Below are positions 10,235 to 54,182 of a stretch of DNA of 54,182 nt, one piece after another. This DNA is from an uncultured bacterium. GTDB taxonomy: Bacteria; Patescibacteriota; Minisyncoccia; Moranbacterales; GWC2-37-73. A program made the position numbers and the translations under genes. Under the pieces are notes generated by a model that did no database searches, was not told the origin of the DNA, and saw nothing but the letters and a program-made list of their open reading frames with translations. The DNA is taken from NCBI GenBank assembly GCA_903861715.1, contig CAIOVI010000037.1:1-54182 (forward strand), written 5' to 3'. Position 1 is the stretch's first letter. Each line of letters opens with the position of its first letter.

Positions 10235-10315
10235 CAATTTTACGTAGCGTGCTACGTGATTGTGAAACAATTTTACGTAGCGTGCTACGTGATTGTGAAA
10301 CAATTTTACGTAGCG
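10235..10315 (+). repeat. 33-bp tandem repeat (2.5 copies) with an internal palindrome
   Basis: CAATTTTACGTAGCGTGCTACGTGATTGTGAAA at 10235 and 10268, partial copy at 10301. Confidence 0.95.
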
Positions 10316-10353
10316 GGATGGAGCAGTCTGGCAGCTCTCCGCCGGTTGGCGGA
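10312..10353 (+). pseudogene. Duplicated 5' 26 nt of tRNA-fMet followed by a REP-like hairpin
   Basis: AGCGGGATGGAGCAGTCTGGCAGCTC is identical to 10390-10415, then TCCGCCGGTTGGCGGA. Confidence 0.9.
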
Positions 10354-10389: not shown

Positions 10390-10463
10390 AGCGGGATGGA
10401 GCAGTCTGGCAGCTCGCGTGGCTCATAACCACGAGGTCGTAGGTTCGAATCCTACTCCCGCAA
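10390..10463 (+). tRNA. tRNA-fMet (CAT), initiator
   Basis: Cloverleaf, CAT anticodon, 1:72 mismatch, A11:U24, GGTTCGAATCC T arm. Confidence 0.92.
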
Positions 10464-49798: not shown

Positions 49799-50162
49799 AT
49801 TTCCTCCCCAGTCTTCCATTTGTTTTGTAGCCATCATCAGAAGACCAAACAAGAAACAACCTTTTCTCAAAGCCACCTTTCTTTTCAAAATTTTTCTGTT
49901 GCTGTTTGGCAATTTCTGCTGAAGTAATTTTTTTCAGTTTTAAAATTTCTTCAATCACATCCAGAACATCAGCAATTTCCTCAATAAACTGGCTTTTGTT
50001 TTTAGCTTGCAAAAGTTCACTGCTCTCTTCCCCAGCTTTTTTCAAAAGCTCTTTCAAAAAATCAACTTTTGAAAGTTTGCGAGTTTCAAGCTCGCTTCCC
50101 CGATTAATTATCTTTTCCGGAATTTTGTCCCGTATCAATTTTCGATAATAGATTTTTTTCAT
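49797..50162 (-). CDS. Nucleoside triphosphate pyrophosphohydrolase (MazG-like, all-alpha)
   Basis: Y.KLIRDKIPE.I, EE..E, EEIADVLDV, KKGGFEKR. Confidence 0.9.
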   Translation of the reverse strand: MKKIYYRKLIRDKIPEKIINRGSELETRKLSKVDFLKELLKKAGEESSELLQAKNKSQFIEEIADVLDVIEEILKLKKITSAEIAKQQQKNFEKKGGFEKRLFLVWSSDDGYKTNGRLGRK

Positions 50163-50174
50163 AGTCTTAAATTT

Positions 50175-50666
50175 TTACCACTTTTCCTGATGAATTTTCT
50201 CAATTTTAAACTCTTCGTCGCTGTGCTCGGGTTTTTCCTCGGCAGGAAAACCGATTGGAATGATATCAATCATACGAAAATTTTTGGGCACGCCAAGGAT
50301 TTCTTTGACTTTTTCTTCCCAGACTGGCGTCAGATTTTTCCAAACACTGCCAAGCCCAAGCTCGGCAGCTTGCAAAAAAATATTTTCGGAAACGATGGAA
50401 AGATCCTGCACTGGCAAAACAGATTGATCGGTGGCGACCGGCGCAATCAGCACCGGCGCGGTTTTGATGTAGTCCTGATCAATAACTTCAAAAACTGCTT
50501 CCTTGATTTTTTGATCTCTGATCACAATAAACTCAACCGCACTTCTGCCCATCGCGCTCGGTGCAAATTGCCCAGCTTTGATAATCTCATTTATCATCTC
50601 ATCTGAAACCGAATCACTTTTGTAAGTTCGAAAGCTCCGACGTTTTTTGATTGCGTTGATAATCAT
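50175..50666 (-). CDS. Nitroreductase family protein
   Basis: IKKRRSFR.Y, APSA, NIFLQAAELGLGSVW, IPIGFP. Confidence 0.93.
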   Translation of the reverse strand: MIINAIKKRRSFRTYKSDSVSDEMINEIIKAGQFAPSAMGRSAVEFIVIRDQKIKEAVFEVIDQDYIKTAPVLIAPVATDQSVLPVQDLSIVSENIFLQAAELGLGSVWKNLTPVWEEKVKEILGVPKNFRMIDIIPIGFPAEEKPEHSDEEFKIEKIHQEKW

Positions 50667-50810
50667 AAAGTTTTTAGGTTATTGTTAGGTATTTTCATTA
50701 TAACCCACTTTGGAACTCAAACAAGGCACCCATCGTAAAGCCACCCCGAAGCTGACTCTTGATATTTATAAAATTATCTGTTAATCTAAATTTTGTAAAT
50801 GAGTGATTTT

Positions 50811-51036
50811 GGAGAAGTGACTGAGAGGGTCGGATGCGAGTGTGCGAGCATCAGACGGGTTTCAAAAGAAACCCTGGCGGCCCGAAGTCCACAAATTTTT
50901 GAATTTACAAAGTAAATAGATATGGAGAAGTGACTGAGAGGGTCGGATGCGAGTGTGCGAGCATCAGACGGGTTTCAAAAGAAACCCGGGCGGCCCGAAG
51001 TCCACAAATTTTTGAATTTACGAAGTAAATAGATAT
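50811..51036 (+). repeat. Two 113-bp tandem units, each a tRNA-Ser(GCT) 5' fragment plus a two-hairpin element
   Basis: GGAGAAGTGACTGAGAGG at 50811, 50924 and 51037. Confidence 0.95.
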
Positions 51037-51126
51037 GGAGAAGTGACTGAGAGGCCGAAAGTACCTCACTGCTAACGAGGCAGGGCTTAACCGCCCTCGA
51101 GGGTTCGAATCCCTCCTTCTCCTCCA
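51037..51126 (+). tRNA. tRNA-Ser (GCT)
   Basis: GGAGAAG/CTTCTCC acceptor stem, GCT anticodon, long variable arm, encoded CCA. Confidence 0.95.
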
Positions 51127-51185
51127 AAAAACCAGGCTTTAATTTCGAGGCCCTCAGTTTTTTGTATTTTTGAAAAAAATAAATT

Positions 51186-51235
51186 GGAAGCATGGCCTCC
51201 GCCCAAGGCGGATCCGCCTTGGGCGGAGAGTGGTT
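51186..51235 (+). pseudogene. tRNA-Ser(TGA) 5' fragment interrupted by a 30-bp perfect palindrome
   Basis: GGAAGCATGGCC[TCCGCCCAAGGCGGATCCGCCTTGGGCGGA]GAGTGGTT. Confidence 0.9.
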
Positions 51236-51252
51236 ATTATTTCTTGTGGCTT

Positions 51253-51501
51253 ATGTACTACGTATATATTCTAAAAAGTAAGAAAAATAGCAAATTGTAT
51301 AAAGGATTTACTGCGGATTTACGTAGAAGAGTTGTGGAGCATAATTCTGGAAATTCTGAGTTTACAAAAAATAATAGGCCATGGAAACTTGTTTATTATG
51401 AAGCGTTTGTGAATGAAAAAGATGCAAGAAGAGAAGAAAAATTTGTAAAATCTGGAAAGGGGAGAGAAAGAATAAAATATTTATTTGAAAATCTAGAATA
51501 A
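51253..51501 (+). CDS. Small GIY-YIG nuclease (82 aa)
   Basis: YYVYILKS...LYKGFT.DL.RR..EHN.G...T...RPW.LVYYE......A..E...KSG.GR. Confidence 0.93.
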   Translation: MYYVYILKSKKNSKLYKGFTADLRRRVVEHNSGNSEFTKNNRPWKLVYYEAFVNEKDARREEKFVKSGKGRERIKYLFENLE

Positions 51502-51504
51502 ATT

Positions 51505-51615
51505 GGAAGCATGGCCGAGTGGGTCAAATGCGAAAAAAGAGCATTTGACGGGTTTCAAAAGAAACCCAGGAACCCGAGGTCATTCAAATTTTTGCATTTT
51601 TGAAAAAAATATTAA
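51505..51615 (+). repeat. tRNA-Ser(TGA) 5' fragment plus two-hairpin element (111-bp unit)
   Basis: GGAAGCATGGCCGAGTGG then GTCAAATGC/GCATTTGAC and GGGTTTC-AAAA-GAAACCC. Confidence 0.92.
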
Positions 51616-51700
51616 GGAAGCATGGCCGAGTGGTTGAAGGCAACAGTCTTGAAAACTGTCATGGGGAGACCCATCGTGAGTTCGAATCTCACTGCTTCCT
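51616..51700 (+). tRNA. tRNA-Ser (TGA)
   Basis: GGAAGCA/TGCTTCC acceptor stem, ACAGT-CTTGAAA-ACTGT anticodon arm, long variable arm. Confidence 0.95.
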
Positions 51701-51806
51701 CAAAAAATAAACACCTTTTGGTGTTTTTTTGCTTACTTGAAAAAATTTTGAACAACCCAAGGTTTATGCTAAAGTTAAGTCAGTAAAAGTAACAACGAAA
51801 AAACCT

Positions 51807-52400
51807 ATGCCAGTTGACTTGCGACAATTTATTGAAAAACCAAAAGAAGACGGTCGGCGCATCCCACCATATTCGCCACCTCAAACCCCAAAGGAAAATT
51901 TTCGAGAACAGGAAACTGAAAATGCCGAAGAACCTCGAGGTGAAATTCTGCACCAGTGGCAAGCGCCAGAATTTGAAGTTTATGAAAAATCCAATCGCTG
52001 GTATCTTTTGGCAGGAGCTTTCTTGCTGGCCATCATCACCTATGCGATGTTTACCAATGGCCCAATTATGGCCATTACTTTCATTCTGATTGGCATCGTC
52101 GGCTATATCCACCTGCAAAAAGAGCCCCGCCTTGTGACTTTCACCATCACCAACGAAGGAATCATCGCCGACAAAGACATGTATCTTTTTGAAAACATTC
52201 ATTCTTTCTGGGTTTTTTATGAACCCCATCATATGGAACTGATCAGTCTGCACACCAAAGCCGCCATGCTCCCCTTTGTGCACATTCCCTTGGAAAACGA
52301 AGACCCAGTGCACCTGCGTGAGATGTTGCTTCCTTTCATTCCCGAAATCAAACAAGAGCCCAGCTTCGTCGACACCCTCGAAAGAATTTTGCATATCTAG
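51807..52400 (+). CDS. Conserved CPR-type 2-TM membrane protein
   Basis: W.APEF....KS.RWY, two TM helices, SFWVFYEP. Confidence 0.85.
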   Translation: MPVDLRQFIEKPKEDGRRIPPYSPPQTPKENFREQETENAEEPRGEILHQWQAPEFEVYEKSNRWYLLAGAFLLAIITYAMFTNGPIMAITFILIGIVGYIHLQKEPRLVTFTITNEGIIADKDMYLFENIHSFWVFYEPHHMELISLHTKAAMLPFVHIPLENEDPVHLREMLLPFIPEIKQEPSFVDTLERILHI

Positions 52401-52409
52401 GTCATACAA

Positions 52410-52610
52410 TCATACAAACATGCAAACATACAAACAAAATGCTCAAATATTTCCATGATTAAACGCTTACATGTTTAAATGTTTAGATGTTTAGATGTTT
52501 AGATGTTTAGATGTTTAGATGCTTAAATGTTCGTATGTTTAAATGATTACATGTTCGTATGTTTAAATGTTTAGATGCTTAGATGATTACATTTTTATAT
52601 GTTTAAATGA
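52410..52610. repeat. Octamer tandem repeats (AAACATAC-like, then the inverse ATGTTTAG/ATGTTTAA)
   Basis: atgtttag and variants, more than 15 units. Confidence 0.9.
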
Positions 52611-52674
52611 TATTGCCTTTACTTTTTCAGTTAATCCTATATACTAAATTTCGTAGTAAAAAATAGCCATTTTA

Positions 52675-52713
52675 TCCTTGTAGCTTCCGCCCAAGGCGGA
52701 CAGGCAGTGGATA
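52675..52713 (+). pseudogene. tRNA-Arg 5' fragment interrupted by a REP-like hairpin
   Basis: TCCTTGTAGCT[TCCGCCCAAGGCGGACAGG]CAGTGGATA. Confidence 0.88.
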
Positions 52714-52722
52714 AAATTTAAT

Positions 52723-52795
52723 GTCCTTGTAGCTCAGTGGATAGAGCGTCTGGTTGCGGTCCAGAAGGTCGCAGGTTCGATTCTTGCCAAGGACA
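52723..52795 (+). tRNA. tRNA-Arg (GCG)
   Basis: GTCCTTG/CAAGGAC acceptor stem, TCTGG-TTGCGGT-CCAGA anticodon arm, A20. Confidence 0.93.
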
Positions 52796-53042
52796 CAAAG
52801 ATAGCCCGCCGAAAGGTGGGTTTTTGTGTGCTTGGAGTGAGTGAATGATTTCACTCACGTCAGGAATCGAACGCCGGAGCAATTTTTGTCAGCAGACAAA
52901 AATGCGAGGCGGTGGCCAGACAAATTTTTGCGACGGCAAAAATTTAGTCGCGGCCGATTCTTGCCAAGGACACAAAGATAGCCCGCCGAAAGGCGGGTTT
53001 TTGTGTGCCTGGAGTGAGTGAAAGATTTCACTCACTCCAGGA
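52778..53042 (+). repeat. Duplicated tRNA-Arg 3' end plus terminator (177-bp period) enclosing a structured insert
   Basis: CGATTCTTGCCAAGGACACAAAGATAGCCCGCCGAAAGG... at 52778 and 52955. Confidence 0.92.
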
Positions 53043-53132
53043 TTAGACATTCATAGATTTTGTAAATTTGTAGCCAATTTGTATATTTGTAGGATTATTG
53101 ATTTTTCTCCACTTTTAGGGCAAAATGAAGAT

Positions 53133-53579
53133 ATGGGCACTATTGCATTCAACAAAAGAGCAAATTTTGACTACGAGCTATCGGATCATTTCGAGGCTGG
53201 TTTAGTGTTGACTGGGGCCGAGGTTAAATCGGTCAAAAACGGCCATTTGAGCCTCAAAGGAAGCTTTGTGACCCTCCACGAAGGCGAACTGCTTTTGACC
53301 AATGCCAACATCCCGCCCTACCCTTTTGCCAAGGTCTCCCTGAGTTATGACCCGACCCGCTCGCGCAAACTTTTGGTGCACAAAGCGCAAATCCGCTCAC
53401 TGATTGGCAAATTGCACACCAAAGGCTTGACATTAGTGCCTCTCCGTGTGTATACTAAGAAACGACTCATCAAGTTGGAATTCGCTCTAGGTCGCGGAAA
53501 AAAGGCCTTTGATAAAAGATCGGATATTGCAAAAAAAGAGTCAAAAAGAAACATAGAGCGAGCGCTCAAAAATGCTTAG
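53133..53579 (+). CDS. smpB: SsrA-binding protein
   Basis: NKRA.FDY, EAGLVLTGAEVKS, R.RKLL.HK, GKK.FDKR. Confidence 0.97.
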   Translation: MGTIAFNKRANFDYELSDHFEAGLVLTGAEVKSVKNGHLSLKGSFVTLHEGELLLTNANIPPYPFAKVSLSYDPTRSRKLLVHKAQIRSLIGKLHTKGLTLVPLRVYTKKRLIKLEFALGRGKKAFDKRSDIAKKESKRNIERALKNA

Positions 53580-53777
53580 GCGTTTTTGAGAATTTGAAAT
53601 TTAAAATTTAAAATTTGAAATGATTTAATATTAAAACATTTTATCATTAAAATTTGATTAAAAATTTGAAATTTAAAATTAAAAATTCCCGCAACTGAAA
53701 AATCACAAAATTGTTTTACTTTTAAAAAATATAATTTGACACTCCCAGCCCTCTACTCTCTTTGAGTGTTGCGGGTT

Positions 53778-54180
53778 GGGGTTGTTTAGTTTCGACAGGT
53801 TGTACTTTTCAAAATATGCAAGTCGATCACCGCTGCTGTCATCGTAAAAAGTGTGGCGAAGATATAAGTGCAAACTTCATATCAAAGGCGAAAGCTACAT
53901 TTGCGCAAGCATTTGCTAGTTTCTCTCCTGTTTTAGCTTAGGCTGAAACCATCGAACTGCTGATTTCTCATACGCAGAGCTCGGTGTCAATCATGAGGAT
54001 AGCTTGATGCGGTTTTTCAGACGCAACAAGCAAAACAACTCTGAAAACGAAATGCGTGGGTTTTGTTTGTTTCCTACTGCGCAACTTCGTATCCCGATTC
54101 GTCGGGGGTGAAACAAACTAAACTTGTAGAGGATTTTGAAATGAATGATTTGGACATGGGTGCAATTCCCATCAACTCCA
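53778..54180 (+). ncRNA. ssrA: tmRNA
   Basis: 5' GGGGTTG...TTCGAC pairs with 3' CAACTCCA (G3:U70, A73); T arm ATGGGTGCAATTCCCAT; tag ORF 53870-53941 ANFISKAKATFAQAFASFSPVLA*; next to smpB. Confidence 0.95.
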
Positions 54181-54182
54181 CA

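Follow-up and report, generated by a model that had tools for sequence, protein, structure and literature searches.

How did incomplete copies of two serine tRNA genes, one of them carrying a nuclease gene, come to stand directly upstream of the intact genes in a small bacterial genome? The window analyzed here is the whole 54,182-nt stretch CAIOVI010000037.1 (assembly GCA_903861715.1) of an uncultured member of the Patescibacteriota (Moranbacterales; GWC2-37-73), and the locus in question lies at 50811-51736, where tRNA-Ser(GCT) is preceded by two 113-nt units and tRNA-Ser(TGA) by two further units, one of which contains an open reading frame (ORF) for a GIY-YIG protein of 82 amino acids (aa). 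The best explanation of this locus is that it holds two kinds of small insertion, both targeting the 5' half of tRNA genes: a GIY-YIG cassette, which we read as a selfish element with a probability of roughly 0.6 for that reading as a whole, and a family of ORF-less units with a structured double hairpin of their own. The features of the locus are the following.

50811-50923, + strand: unit A1, the first 113-nt unit 5' of tRNA-Ser(GCT), with tRNA-Ser(GCT) nt 1-18 (50811-50828), variable hairpin 1 (50829-50856), conserved hairpin 2 (50857-50874), an 18-nt tail, then a T-run and an AT-rich promoter-like stretch (50893-50923)
50924-51036, + strand: unit A2, the second tandem copy, identical to A1 at 111/113 bases
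51037-51126, + strand: intact tRNA-Ser(GCT), on which ARAGORN and Rfam agree
51135-51162, + strand: terminator-like hairpin and T-run 3' of tRNA-Ser(GCT), dividing two transcription units
51178-51197, + strand: left 20-nt direct repeat AATAAATTGGAAGCATGGCC, made of the 8 nt upstream of the tRNA and tRNA-Ser(TGA) nt 1-12
51186-51235, + strand: pseudo 5' copy of tRNA-Ser(TGA) (first part of unit B0), nt 1-12 and nt 13-20 with a 30-nt insertion between them
51198-51227, + strand: two 15-nt GC-rich hairpins (6-bp stem, 3-nt loop) at the D-stem/D-loop boundary
51253-51501, + strand: gene for an 82-aa, catalytic-domain-only GIY-YIG nuclease (UPF0213/YhbQ-like)
51497-51516, + strand: right 20-nt direct repeat AATAAATTGGAAGCATGGCC, holding the TAA stop of the GIY-YIG ORF
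51505-51615, + strand: unit B1, with tRNA-Ser(TGA) nt 1-18, hairpin 1 (51523-51549), hairpin 2 (51550-51567) and a tail
51586-51615, + strand: 3' part of B1, a copy of the upstream promoter region of tRNA-Ser(TGA)
51616-51701, + strand: intact tRNA-Ser(TGA), on which ARAGORN and Rfam agree
51709-51736, + strand: terminator-like hairpin and T-run, closing the GIY-YIG/B1/tRNA-Ser(TGA) unit

Both A units open with 18 nt identical to tRNA-Ser(GCT) nt 1-18, followed by a 28-nt hairpin, the 18-nt hairpin GGGTTTCAAAAGAAACCC, an 18-nt tail and the T-run with its AT-rich stretch, which stops exactly at the start of the next copy or of the tRNA. Unit B0 consists of tRNA nt 1-12 (51186-51197), the hairpins TCCGCCCAAGGCGGA and then its reverse complement (51198-51227), tRNA nt 13-20 (51228-51235), a 17-nt linker and the 82-aa ORF. 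The 20-nt repeat corresponds to positions -8 to +12 of tRNA-Ser(TGA), and the intact tRNA takes the final position in both arrays. A preliminary description, made from the letters of the stretch, had reported this arrangement (units opening with the 5' end of their own tRNA, the intact tRNA last, direct repeats at 51178 and 51497), and all of it was found exactly so. Exact 18-nt matches to a tRNA 5' end occur in the 1.28-Mb source genome solely at such sites, so the layout of the arrays is beyond chance. The label 'promoter-like' denotes position only, because a sigma-70 scan of 50650-51850 gave three sites against 2.3 expected and none at the unit tails.

Two familiar kinds of element were considered for this layout and rejected. 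A group I intron in a tRNA gene does not fit, as a complete tRNA rather than a 3' exon follows the ORF and no Rfam intron match was found in 50000-54182, where a search at E values up to 1 returned only tRNAs, transfer-messenger RNA (tmRNA) and chance-level matches. A transposon or miniature inverted-repeat transposable element was rejected for the lack of terminal inverted repeats, the sole inverted repeat of the array being an internal 32-nt palindrome.

That the repeats might be an assembly artefact of a metagenome bin, a possibility the preliminary description had itself raised, is extremely unlikely. The source genome is indeed a 63-contig draft in which several GIY-YIG copies lie at contig ends and two contigs give conflicting joins at tRNA-Lys. 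Against an artefact, A1 and A2 carry two distinguishing bases among 113 positions (50875 and 50909), four public runs from a single study show the A-unit unitig at 1.9 times flanking unitig depth (unitig depth not being copy number), and units of the same family precede the same tRNAs in independent genomes. In these runs the unitig of the GIY-YIG gene (51199-51652) lies at 0.33-0.56 of the flanking unitig depth, again not to be read as copy number; this low depth may be a hint of co-occurring strains without the cassette, and thus of strain-level polymorphism.

Evidence that the cassette moves comes from its presence and absence at one site. The block tRNA-Ser(GCT), tRNA-Ser(TGA), orf197, tRNA-Arg(GCG) is syntenic in relatives (19 loci inspected; orf197 present in 35/41 genomes). 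Alleles empty of the cassette, for which the preliminary description had proposed a survey, exist beside occupied ones: congeners G001 and G002 carry the same cassette as the source genome, directly before tRNA-Ser(TGA) and with no B unit, G005 lacks the cassette and has a single unit each of types A and B, and G003 has neither cassette nor units at its serine tRNA locus. Between the source genome and G002, nucleotide identity is 96.8% in the ORF and 95.7% in the hairpin-bearing 5' part, against 73% in the adjacent orf197, and because the cassette is so much more similar than orf197 (96.8% vs 73%) we read its distribution as recent lateral spread to the same target. In two respects the element is like a free-standing homing endonuclease gene, being present or absent at a single site among congeners and more similar than its flanks. 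A GIY-YIG gene stands beside the serine tRNAs in 4 of the 19 syntenic loci, and those genes differ, at 46-96% identity.

The association reaches far beyond this locus. With the window protein as query, 41 related genomes of the same order were surveyed, and the first 100 listed places outside the source genome were fetched with 1.2-kb flanks. Homologues occur in 37/41 genomes (none in 4/41), as 1-15 divergent paralogues per genome at different tRNAs; 40/106 GIY-YIG matches lie within 50 nt of a tRNA gene and 58/106 within 300 nt. All 58 of these tRNA-near genes are on the strand of the tRNA; 43 have it downstream and 15 upstream, and together they cover 22 anticodon classes. A second survey, confined to this phylum (genomes of 0.5-2.1 Mb), used a profile of the alignment of tRNA-adjacent homologues and found the GIY-YIG family in 89/121 genomes. 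Sixty loci were sampled (the first listed match of 57 genomes and three more from one complete genome), giving 36/65 matches within 50 nt of a tRNA and 49/65 within 300 nt; again every tRNA-near gene was co-oriented (49/49), the tRNA being downstream in 33 and upstream in 16, at 27 anticodon classes. Random 240-nt segments of the source genome fall within 50 nt of a tRNA in 1.0% of cases and within 300 nt in 2.1%. The spacing between gene and tRNA is 0-30 nt in most tRNA-linked cases. The suggestion that GIY-YIG genes of this kind sit next to tRNA fragments is therefore borne out, with strong enrichment beside tRNAs and their 5' fragments.

Single loci in these surveys show further arrangements. 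G003 has a truncated GIY-YIG frame between smpB and the tmRNA gene (L018, 468-548); because the frame sits before tmRNA, another possible target is the tRNA-like 5' end of that gene. At two loci in relatives (L057 and L103) GIY-YIG frames have no stop before the first bases of the downstream tRNA-Ser gene, and because they run into it the C-terminal residues of these proteins are tRNA-encoded. At the tRNA-Glu locus of a relative (L114), a 5' half with a double hairpin is followed by a GIY-YIG gene, an intact tRNA-Glu and a second double hairpin with the 3' half, which looks as though a cassette containing an entire tRNA had entered a tRNA disrupted by hairpins.

The 5' fragment in front of the GIY-YIG gene is as a rule a copy of the tRNA that follows it. 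For 74 pairs in which the gene lies at most 130 nt upstream of a co-oriented tRNA, exact seeds shared by the tRNA and the 170 nt preceding the ORF were chained, and 50/74 pairs gave a collinear 5' copy of their own tRNA starting at nt 8 or earlier, compared with 0-5/74 in 20 controls that used tRNAs of other anticodons. Insertions of at least 10 nt in these pseudo-copies (n = 43) lie in the D-loop (19), at the D-stem/D-loop boundary (14), in the anticodon loop (7) or elsewhere (3); 33/43 contain a perfect stem of at least 6 bp, and 38/43 are at least 60% G+C. The idea that the nuclease acts at D-arm sequences is supported in so far as breakpoints and insertions cluster in the D-loop; a second cluster lies in the anticodon loop. 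Where the tRNA is upstream of the gene, the mirror image of this layout, with a 3' fragment just after the ORF, was found in 8/31 pairs.

The hairpins fall into families, namely 15-nt pairs as in the window, the 20-nt palindrome CCTGCCTGCCGGCAGGCAGG and a 34-nt form, and each family covers several tRNA identities. Placed on a tree of the nuclease domain, hairpin family required three label changes over 27 cassettes (chosen by eye from the 50), against a minimum of seven in 500 shuffles; the hairpins therefore travel with the nuclease lineage and not with the tRNA. The identity of the tRNA itself gave 47 label changes on the nuclease tree vs 64-73 in shuffles (n = 96), with one large clade lacking a tRNA link, and among nuclease pairs at least 60% identical the tRNAs serve the same amino acid in 45 and different ones in 8.

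The ORF at 51253-51501 matches Pfam GIY-YIG (PF01541) at 56.6 bits (cut-off 22.6; E = 3.2e-15). Its closest solved relatives by phmmer are the UPF0213 proteins 1ZG2 (E = 2e-8) and 1YWL (E = 9.5e-6), followed by SLX1 homologues, and its single domain of 82 aa fits the UPF0213/YhbQ-like profile (about 80-110 aa, nearest BH0048 and EF2693). Residues Y5, Y16, R26, H30, E62 and K66 are invariant among 30 tRNA-adjacent homologues; we take Y5, Y16, R26 and E62 to have the catalytic roles of the GIY Tyr, the YIG Tyr, Arg and Glu. An AlphaFold model with a pLDDT (predicted local distance difference test) of 94 has the order strand-strand-helix-strand-helix-helix, as expected for the GIY-YIG fold, and its top Foldseek matches are UPF0213 1ZG2, At-HIGLE 7WME, Slx1 and Slx1-Slx4 entries and the I-TevI catalytic domain 1LN0; the protein stands nearest to nucleases of the structure-specific kind. 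From the Pfam match, the invariant residues, the fold and the length of 82 aa, the gene therefore apparently encodes a minimal nuclease domain, predicted to be active, without a DNA-binding module. A group I intron endonuclease model (TIGR01453) scored below threshold (16.7 bits vs a cut-off of 56), and tblastn against phage records gave nine weak matches (32-42% identity), all in unannotated records. When two copies were modeled together, the score was 0.64 (best of three controls 0.00), runs agreed in at least 96% of contacts and the partner pLDDT was at least 85, the predicted interface being formed by strand 45-54 and the C-terminal helix. The score mark used is reached by 20/30 proteins solved as same-chain pairs and by 1/23 solved as single chains; the modeling supports, but does not show, a homodimer.

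These results bear on whether the GIY-YIG protein might instead be a housekeeping nuclease for tRNA processing or repair, co-transcribed with its tRNA, while the pseudo-tRNAs are neutral duplications in decay and hairpins like REP (repetitive extragenic palindromic) elements accumulate. Perfect co-orientation, the tight spacing (mostly 0-30 nt) and the conserved catalytic residues would all suit such an enzyme, and so would the 17 copies of the hairpin motif that lie away from tRNAs in the source genome. A housekeeping role is nonetheless improbable: each genome has 1-15 divergent paralogues at different tRNAs and 4/41 relatives have none, congeners differ in whether they have the gene at one site, 97% identity across species contrasts with 73% in the flanking gene, hairpin type tracks nuclease lineage across different tRNAs, and several of the source-genome copies lie at contig ends.

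We regard it as less probable still that the fragments are attL/attR scars of integrase-mediated islands or phages with the GIY-YIG gene as a leftover passenger. Partial beside complete tRNA genes are a known result of integration (described in passages of bioRxiv 10.1101/2022.07.05.498093), and BLAST of all 40 tRNAs against the source genome gave, besides 5' fragments upstream of tRNA-Met, Ser(GCT), Ser(TGA) and Ala, 3' fragments downstream of Thr(CGT), Arg(GCG), Leu(TAA), Glu(TTC) and Leu(TAG). At the serine locus, however, the duplicated part is the 5' end (nt 1-18 or 1-20) and lies upstream of the intact tRNA, the inserts measure just 95-320 nt, and the same compact layout recurs in 50/74 cases. 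Of the four ORFs scanned with Pfam, one is GIY-YIG, one is a nitroreductase, one gave a weak PRA-PH match and one (the 197-aa orf197) fell into no family. No recombinase was found: within the array, the GIY-YIG gene alone has a family match or conserved homologues (ORFs of 40-72 aa lay outside the scan). The preliminary description's view that the system works without an integrase thus agrees with the scanned ORFs of the locus.

The 113-nt units form a family of their own. The source genome has five (A1, A2, B1, one before tRNA-Cys and one before tRNA-Ser(GGA)); among the relatives, BLAST found units in 13/41 genomes, and a covariance model built from 18 units of 12 genomes gave 44 matches in 19/41 genomes, including 14/24 of the same family and also members of three other families of the order (f3, f7 and f8). 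Where a tRNA could be read within 260 nt downstream (19 units; two ended at a contig end or masked bases, and about 25 model matches fell outside this tally), it was tRNA-Ser in 16 (GCT 6, TGA 6, CGA 2, GGA 2) and tRNA-Cys in 3. Every unit opens with the 5' end of its tRNA (0-3 mismatches, counted by eye) and continues through the two conserved D-loop guanines. In the double hairpin, 97.6% of cells are paired over 18 units and 7/16 pairs have changed on both sides; none of 500 shuffles reached this level, and in slid controls 27-54% of cells were paired. Hairpin 2 hardly varies, and hairpin 1 is hypervariable. Read on the opposite strand, about 11 G-U cells would turn into C-A mismatches; it is therefore the sense strand that is constrained, either as RNA or as single-stranded DNA. 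No Rfam 15 family covers the units at E values up to 1.

Two extensions of this structure were tried and dropped. The reading of the unit as a pseudo-tRNA through the whole D-arm failed, as what follows hairpin 2 resembles the cognate tRNA no more than it does other tRNAs (means of 4.47 vs 4.32, 19 units), and a covarying closing stem between units A and B was not upheld by RNAalifold, which keeps just the two hairpins.

Units and cassettes share an architecture, namely a tRNA 5' fragment, hairpins after G18G19 and a regenerated tRNA. The unit hairpins were seen before none of 112 listed GIY-YIG genes (130 nt upstream of each), so to call the units 'non-autonomous derivatives' can refer to shared architecture only. 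The preliminary description had taken them for derivatives of the nuclease cassette; this does not hold, their hairpins being a different, covarying family restricted to tRNA-Ser and tRNA-Cys. Unit presence is patchy in the genus, with no match in 2/6 congeners and zero, one or two copies at the same tRNA. The units may be elements mobilized in trans or functional RNAs; most likely they are ORF-less elements of the same insertion style, possibly trans-mobilized, whose transcript or single strand is structurally constrained.

Functional RNAs would arise here as small RNAs or leaders of tRNA-Ser and tRNA-Cys (a terminator or attenuator, or a decoy of the tRNA 5' end), formed by duplication of the promoter and of tRNA nt 1-18, with the GIY-YIG cassette independent of them. 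This is possible, though we think it doubtful. The strong sense-strand covariation with G-U pairs, the near-invariant second hairpin and the closing of each unit by a T-run followed by a promoter-like stretch speak for it, as does the occurrence in 14/24 genomes of the same family and in f3, f7 and f8. Function fits less well with the patchiness within the genus (2/6 congeners without a match; copy number 0-2 at the same tRNA) or with an architecture equal to that of ORF-bearing cassettes and of the ORF-less tRNA-Met and tRNA-Arg sites described below; a shared D-loop sequence as insertion target would explain the Ser/Cys restriction equally well, and there is no Rfam match. Functional units and a selfish cassette are not mutually exclusive.

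The cassette architecture recurs without an ORF at two other places in the window, as follows.

10313-10353, + strand: ORF-less site before tRNA-Met, a 25-nt copy of the tRNA-Met start (10313-10337) and a 16-nt hairpin of the TCCGCC...GGCGGA family (10338-10353)
52674-52716, + strand: ORF-less site before tRNA-Arg(GCG), a 12-nt fragment (11 match nt 1-12), a 15-nt hairpin (52686-52700) and about nt 13-23

The intact tRNA-Met is called at 10390, 36 nt past the hairpin that ends at 10353. The 15-nt hairpin at 52686-52700 is that of the GIY-YIG cassette, and the intact tRNA-Arg(GCG) begins a few nt on, at 52723. The hairpin motif (TCCGCC, 3-4 nt, GGCGGA) has 29 copies in the source genome, 12 at tRNA or pseudo-tRNA sites and 17 elsewhere. 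The genome encodes six GIY-YIG paralogues and one fragment, several at contig ends. One paralogue lies about 300 nt from tRNA-Pro, and another between tRNA-Thr(TGT) and tRNA-Tyr, beside a pseudo-tRNA-Thr with palindrome copies in its D-loop and T-loop. An array at C35:1-670 has at least five 84-nt units, in each of which tRNA-Lys nt 1-23 are followed by a 16-nt hairpin and then by nt 32-52, and a GIY-YIG gene lies within one of them. The ORF-less hairpin sites at tRNA-Met, tRNA-Arg and tRNA-Lys are better candidates for derivatives of the GIY-YIG cassette than the 113-nt units are.

Several further observations were made around these sites. C40:41459-41630 joins the same upstream flank straight to an intact tRNA-Lys, so that 'array' and 'empty' joins were both assembled; the conflict between C35 and C40 is suggestive of polymorphism, though it may reflect assembly ambiguity. 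On C2, the pseudo-tRNA-Thr is near full length, carries an 18-nt palindrome in both D-loop and T-loop with a third copy just 3', and abuts the intact tRNA-Thr(TGT), after which come the GIY-YIG gene and tRNA-Tyr. A paralogue away from tRNA (C8:21165-21790) lies between two direct repeats of about 100 nt with a hairpin of the same family, and this repeat recurs at several other places in the genome. A second ORF-less insert family occurs 3' of tRNAs (C4:8353-8634, C38:8260-8358 and C31:26245-26369, and also at L017 ~1275-1390 and L018 ~2290-2390); these inserts consist of an inverted copy of the tRNA T-loop or 3' end, a shared core and a direct copy of the tRNA 3' part, and in several genomes they follow tRNAs for Glu, Leu and Ser. 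In the window, the segment of tRNA-Arg(GCG) from T-loop to 3' end is duplicated with its terminator about 160 nt downstream (52955-52973), and the insert between the tRNA and this duplicate opens with an inverted T-loop-like sequence. Between orf197 and tRNA-Arg, 52403-52598 holds dense 8-nt repeats, a gap of about 40 nt and then some 14 reverse-complement copies, with an iteron-like look.

How might the GIY-YIG cassette spread? It consists of cognate GC-rich hairpins and the gene for a minimal, probably dimeric, structure-specific nuclease, and belongs to a class found phylum-wide at many tRNA genes and spreading laterally to the same site elsewhere. The nuclease may nick or cut tRNA-gene DNA at loop positions, perhaps where cruciforms or the displaced strand of this heavily transcribed DNA make them accessible. 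Repair by copying from a cassette-bearing allele, or unequal repair, would then add hairpins, ORF and 5' segment, leaving the recipient with a dead 5' copy plus a working tRNA; the stretch between a few bases upstream of the gene and the insertion point exists in two copies, and this keeps the tRNA intact. If the working copy were cut again and again and repaired unequally, tandem arrays with the intact gene last could build up. As the cassette lies co-oriented between promoter and tRNA, its transcription could start from the tRNA promoter, with the tRNA then cut free by RNase P. Of the selfish, integrase-free system proposed in the preliminary description, the selfish and integrase-free parts agree with site polymorphism, excess similarity and the lack of an integrase, and the short units as its derivatives do not stand.

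Several points weigh against this reading. No contig of the four runs joins across an empty site, nor does any join across the cassette or the units. Known homing endonucleases use a DNA-binding part beyond the catalytic domain, and the 82 aa hold the catalytic domain only, with no DNA-binding module, so that in this respect the protein does not look like a homing endonuclease. The pseudo-copy resumes past the hairpin for 7-9 nt in 18/39 loci (7 nt being the detection floor), a run-on that no simple one-step insertion model explains. Of the counts above, the 75% tRNA linkage in the phylum is inflated because the profile was built from tRNA-adjacent members, all tallies overstate the number of separate events because kin genomes are not independent, and the hairpin test used cassettes selected by eye. 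Since 48/106 and 16/65 homologues lie away from tRNA, some in conserved clades that look vertically inherited, the family is not uniformly tRNA-linked. The confinement of the 113-nt units to tRNA-Ser (four isoacceptors) and tRNA-Cys in 19/19 readable cases, and hairpins unlike those of any GIY-YIG cassette seen (0/112 listed genes), favor functional RNAs over a common origin with the cassette. Cleavage of tRNA-gene DNA by the nuclease, the route of repair, co-transcription with the tRNA and trans-mobilization of the units are all things that we infer.

A wider version of the proposal is that dimeric, catalytic-domain-only nucleases with cognate hairpins invade the loops of single-copy tRNA genes throughout the phylum, without integrase or intron, rebuilding the tRNA by duplication and borrowing its promoter; UPF0213/YhbQ would thereby gain a first role, and the Ser/Cys units would be trans-mobilized partners or RNA decoys. 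We advance this tentatively, at somewhat less than even odds. The small genomes of this phylum have mostly single-copy tRNA genes, so that an insert in a tRNA gene must avoid killing its host, and the solution at this locus is a pseudo 5' copy, hairpins, a nuclease gene and a rebuilt tRNA. The layout at 27 anticodon classes ties a common 'hypothetical' protein family to a testable activity on tRNA-gene DNA or hairpins. Such cassettes also account for assembly breaks at tRNA regions and for the 5' fragments met by tRNA finders. The double hairpin before tRNA-Ser and tRNA-Cys is a new, well-supported structured element without an Rfam match. If the proposal is true, a dimeric, structure-guided nuclease of 80 aa that comes with a portable hairpin would be interesting both in evolutionary terms and as a tool.

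Selfish GIY-YIG elements are already known as a kind; the tRNA-linked cassette is a new variant, joined by the new structured element of the units. The literature searched, supplementary tables lying outside that search, contained no paper tying UPF0213/GIY-YIG to bacterial tRNA genes or to hairpin-split 5' tRNA copies. Among proteins, UPF0213/YhbQ and the Slx1 domain (PDB 1ZG2, 1YWL, 7WME and 6SEH) share with the window protein a small GIY-YIG domain and the same Tyr, Tyr, Arg, His and Glu. The UPF0213 structures carry the depositors' label 'hypothetical', with no tRNA-gene link in the papers searched, and Slx1, unlike the window protein, has additional domains and acts on branched DNA together with Slx4. 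REP elements and their RAYT (REP-associated tyrosine transposase) genes combine dispersed short palindromes with a flanked gene in an autonomous/non-autonomous relation. RAYTs are Y1 (HUH) transposases rather than GIY-YIG enzymes, and REPs are not known to target tRNA loops or to carry pseudo-tRNA copies. At atp6 of Allomyces mitochondria, a mobile GIY-YIG ORF is reported to bring a replacement gene end and to leave the displaced fragment beside the working gene, which resembles the present insertion of a GIY-YIG ORF with a displaced gene fragment next to a working gene.

Islands at tRNA genes are driven by integrases and usually duplicate the 3' part of the tRNA. Islands and prophages at tRNA genes named in passages of bioRxiv 10.1101/2022.07.05.498093 measure about 9-121 kb. 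They are like the present insertions in having a tRNA target, one partial and one complete copy around the insert, and a working tRNA kept; here, in contrast, the inserts are 0.1-0.3 kb, have no recombinase, mostly duplicate the 5' part and lie between promoter and tRNA. Double-hairpin elements of chytrid and fission yeast mitochondria, in the portion of PMC10085805 that describes them, are short and GC-rich in AT-rich genomes, occupy intergenic and rRNA sites and have cross-species identity that suggests transfer. By that description the likeness is one of architecture, short GC-rich double hairpins, and the present elements differ in their bacterial chromosome, their tRNA targets and hairpins that covary with a nuclease lineage.

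The nearest parallels combine a GIY-YIG gene with a structural RNA gene. Phage T4 segB (PMC2330249) is a free-standing GIY-YIG homing endonuclease gene in a tRNA gene cluster, and like the cassette it is a GIY-YIG gene that lies among tRNA genes and not in an intron. Its inheritance and spread are tied to cutting alleles that lack it; the site polymorphism and excess similarity between species found for the cassette fit homing in the style of segB. Unlike segB, the cassette encodes 82 aa, resides in a cellular rather than a phage chromosome, has lineage-specific hairpins and a 5' pseudo-copy, and occupies many tRNAs. Tsurumaki et al. 2024 (PMC11270868, in its main text, which covers rRNA genes only and does not use the term 'tRNA') reported GIY-YIG proteins in non-intron insertions of rRNA genes of the candidate phyla radiation (CPR), a sparse set judged to lie outside homing. 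If the phylum of the window belongs to the CPR, as the preliminary description supposed and as genome sizes of 0.5-2.1 Mb would fit, the same bacteria, the same superfamily and structural RNA gene targets are involved in both, and as far as that main text describes its cases both lack group I or II introns and lie mostly at the top or base of stem-loops. What sets the tRNA cases apart from those rRNA insertions is that they keep an intact copy of the gene through partial duplication.

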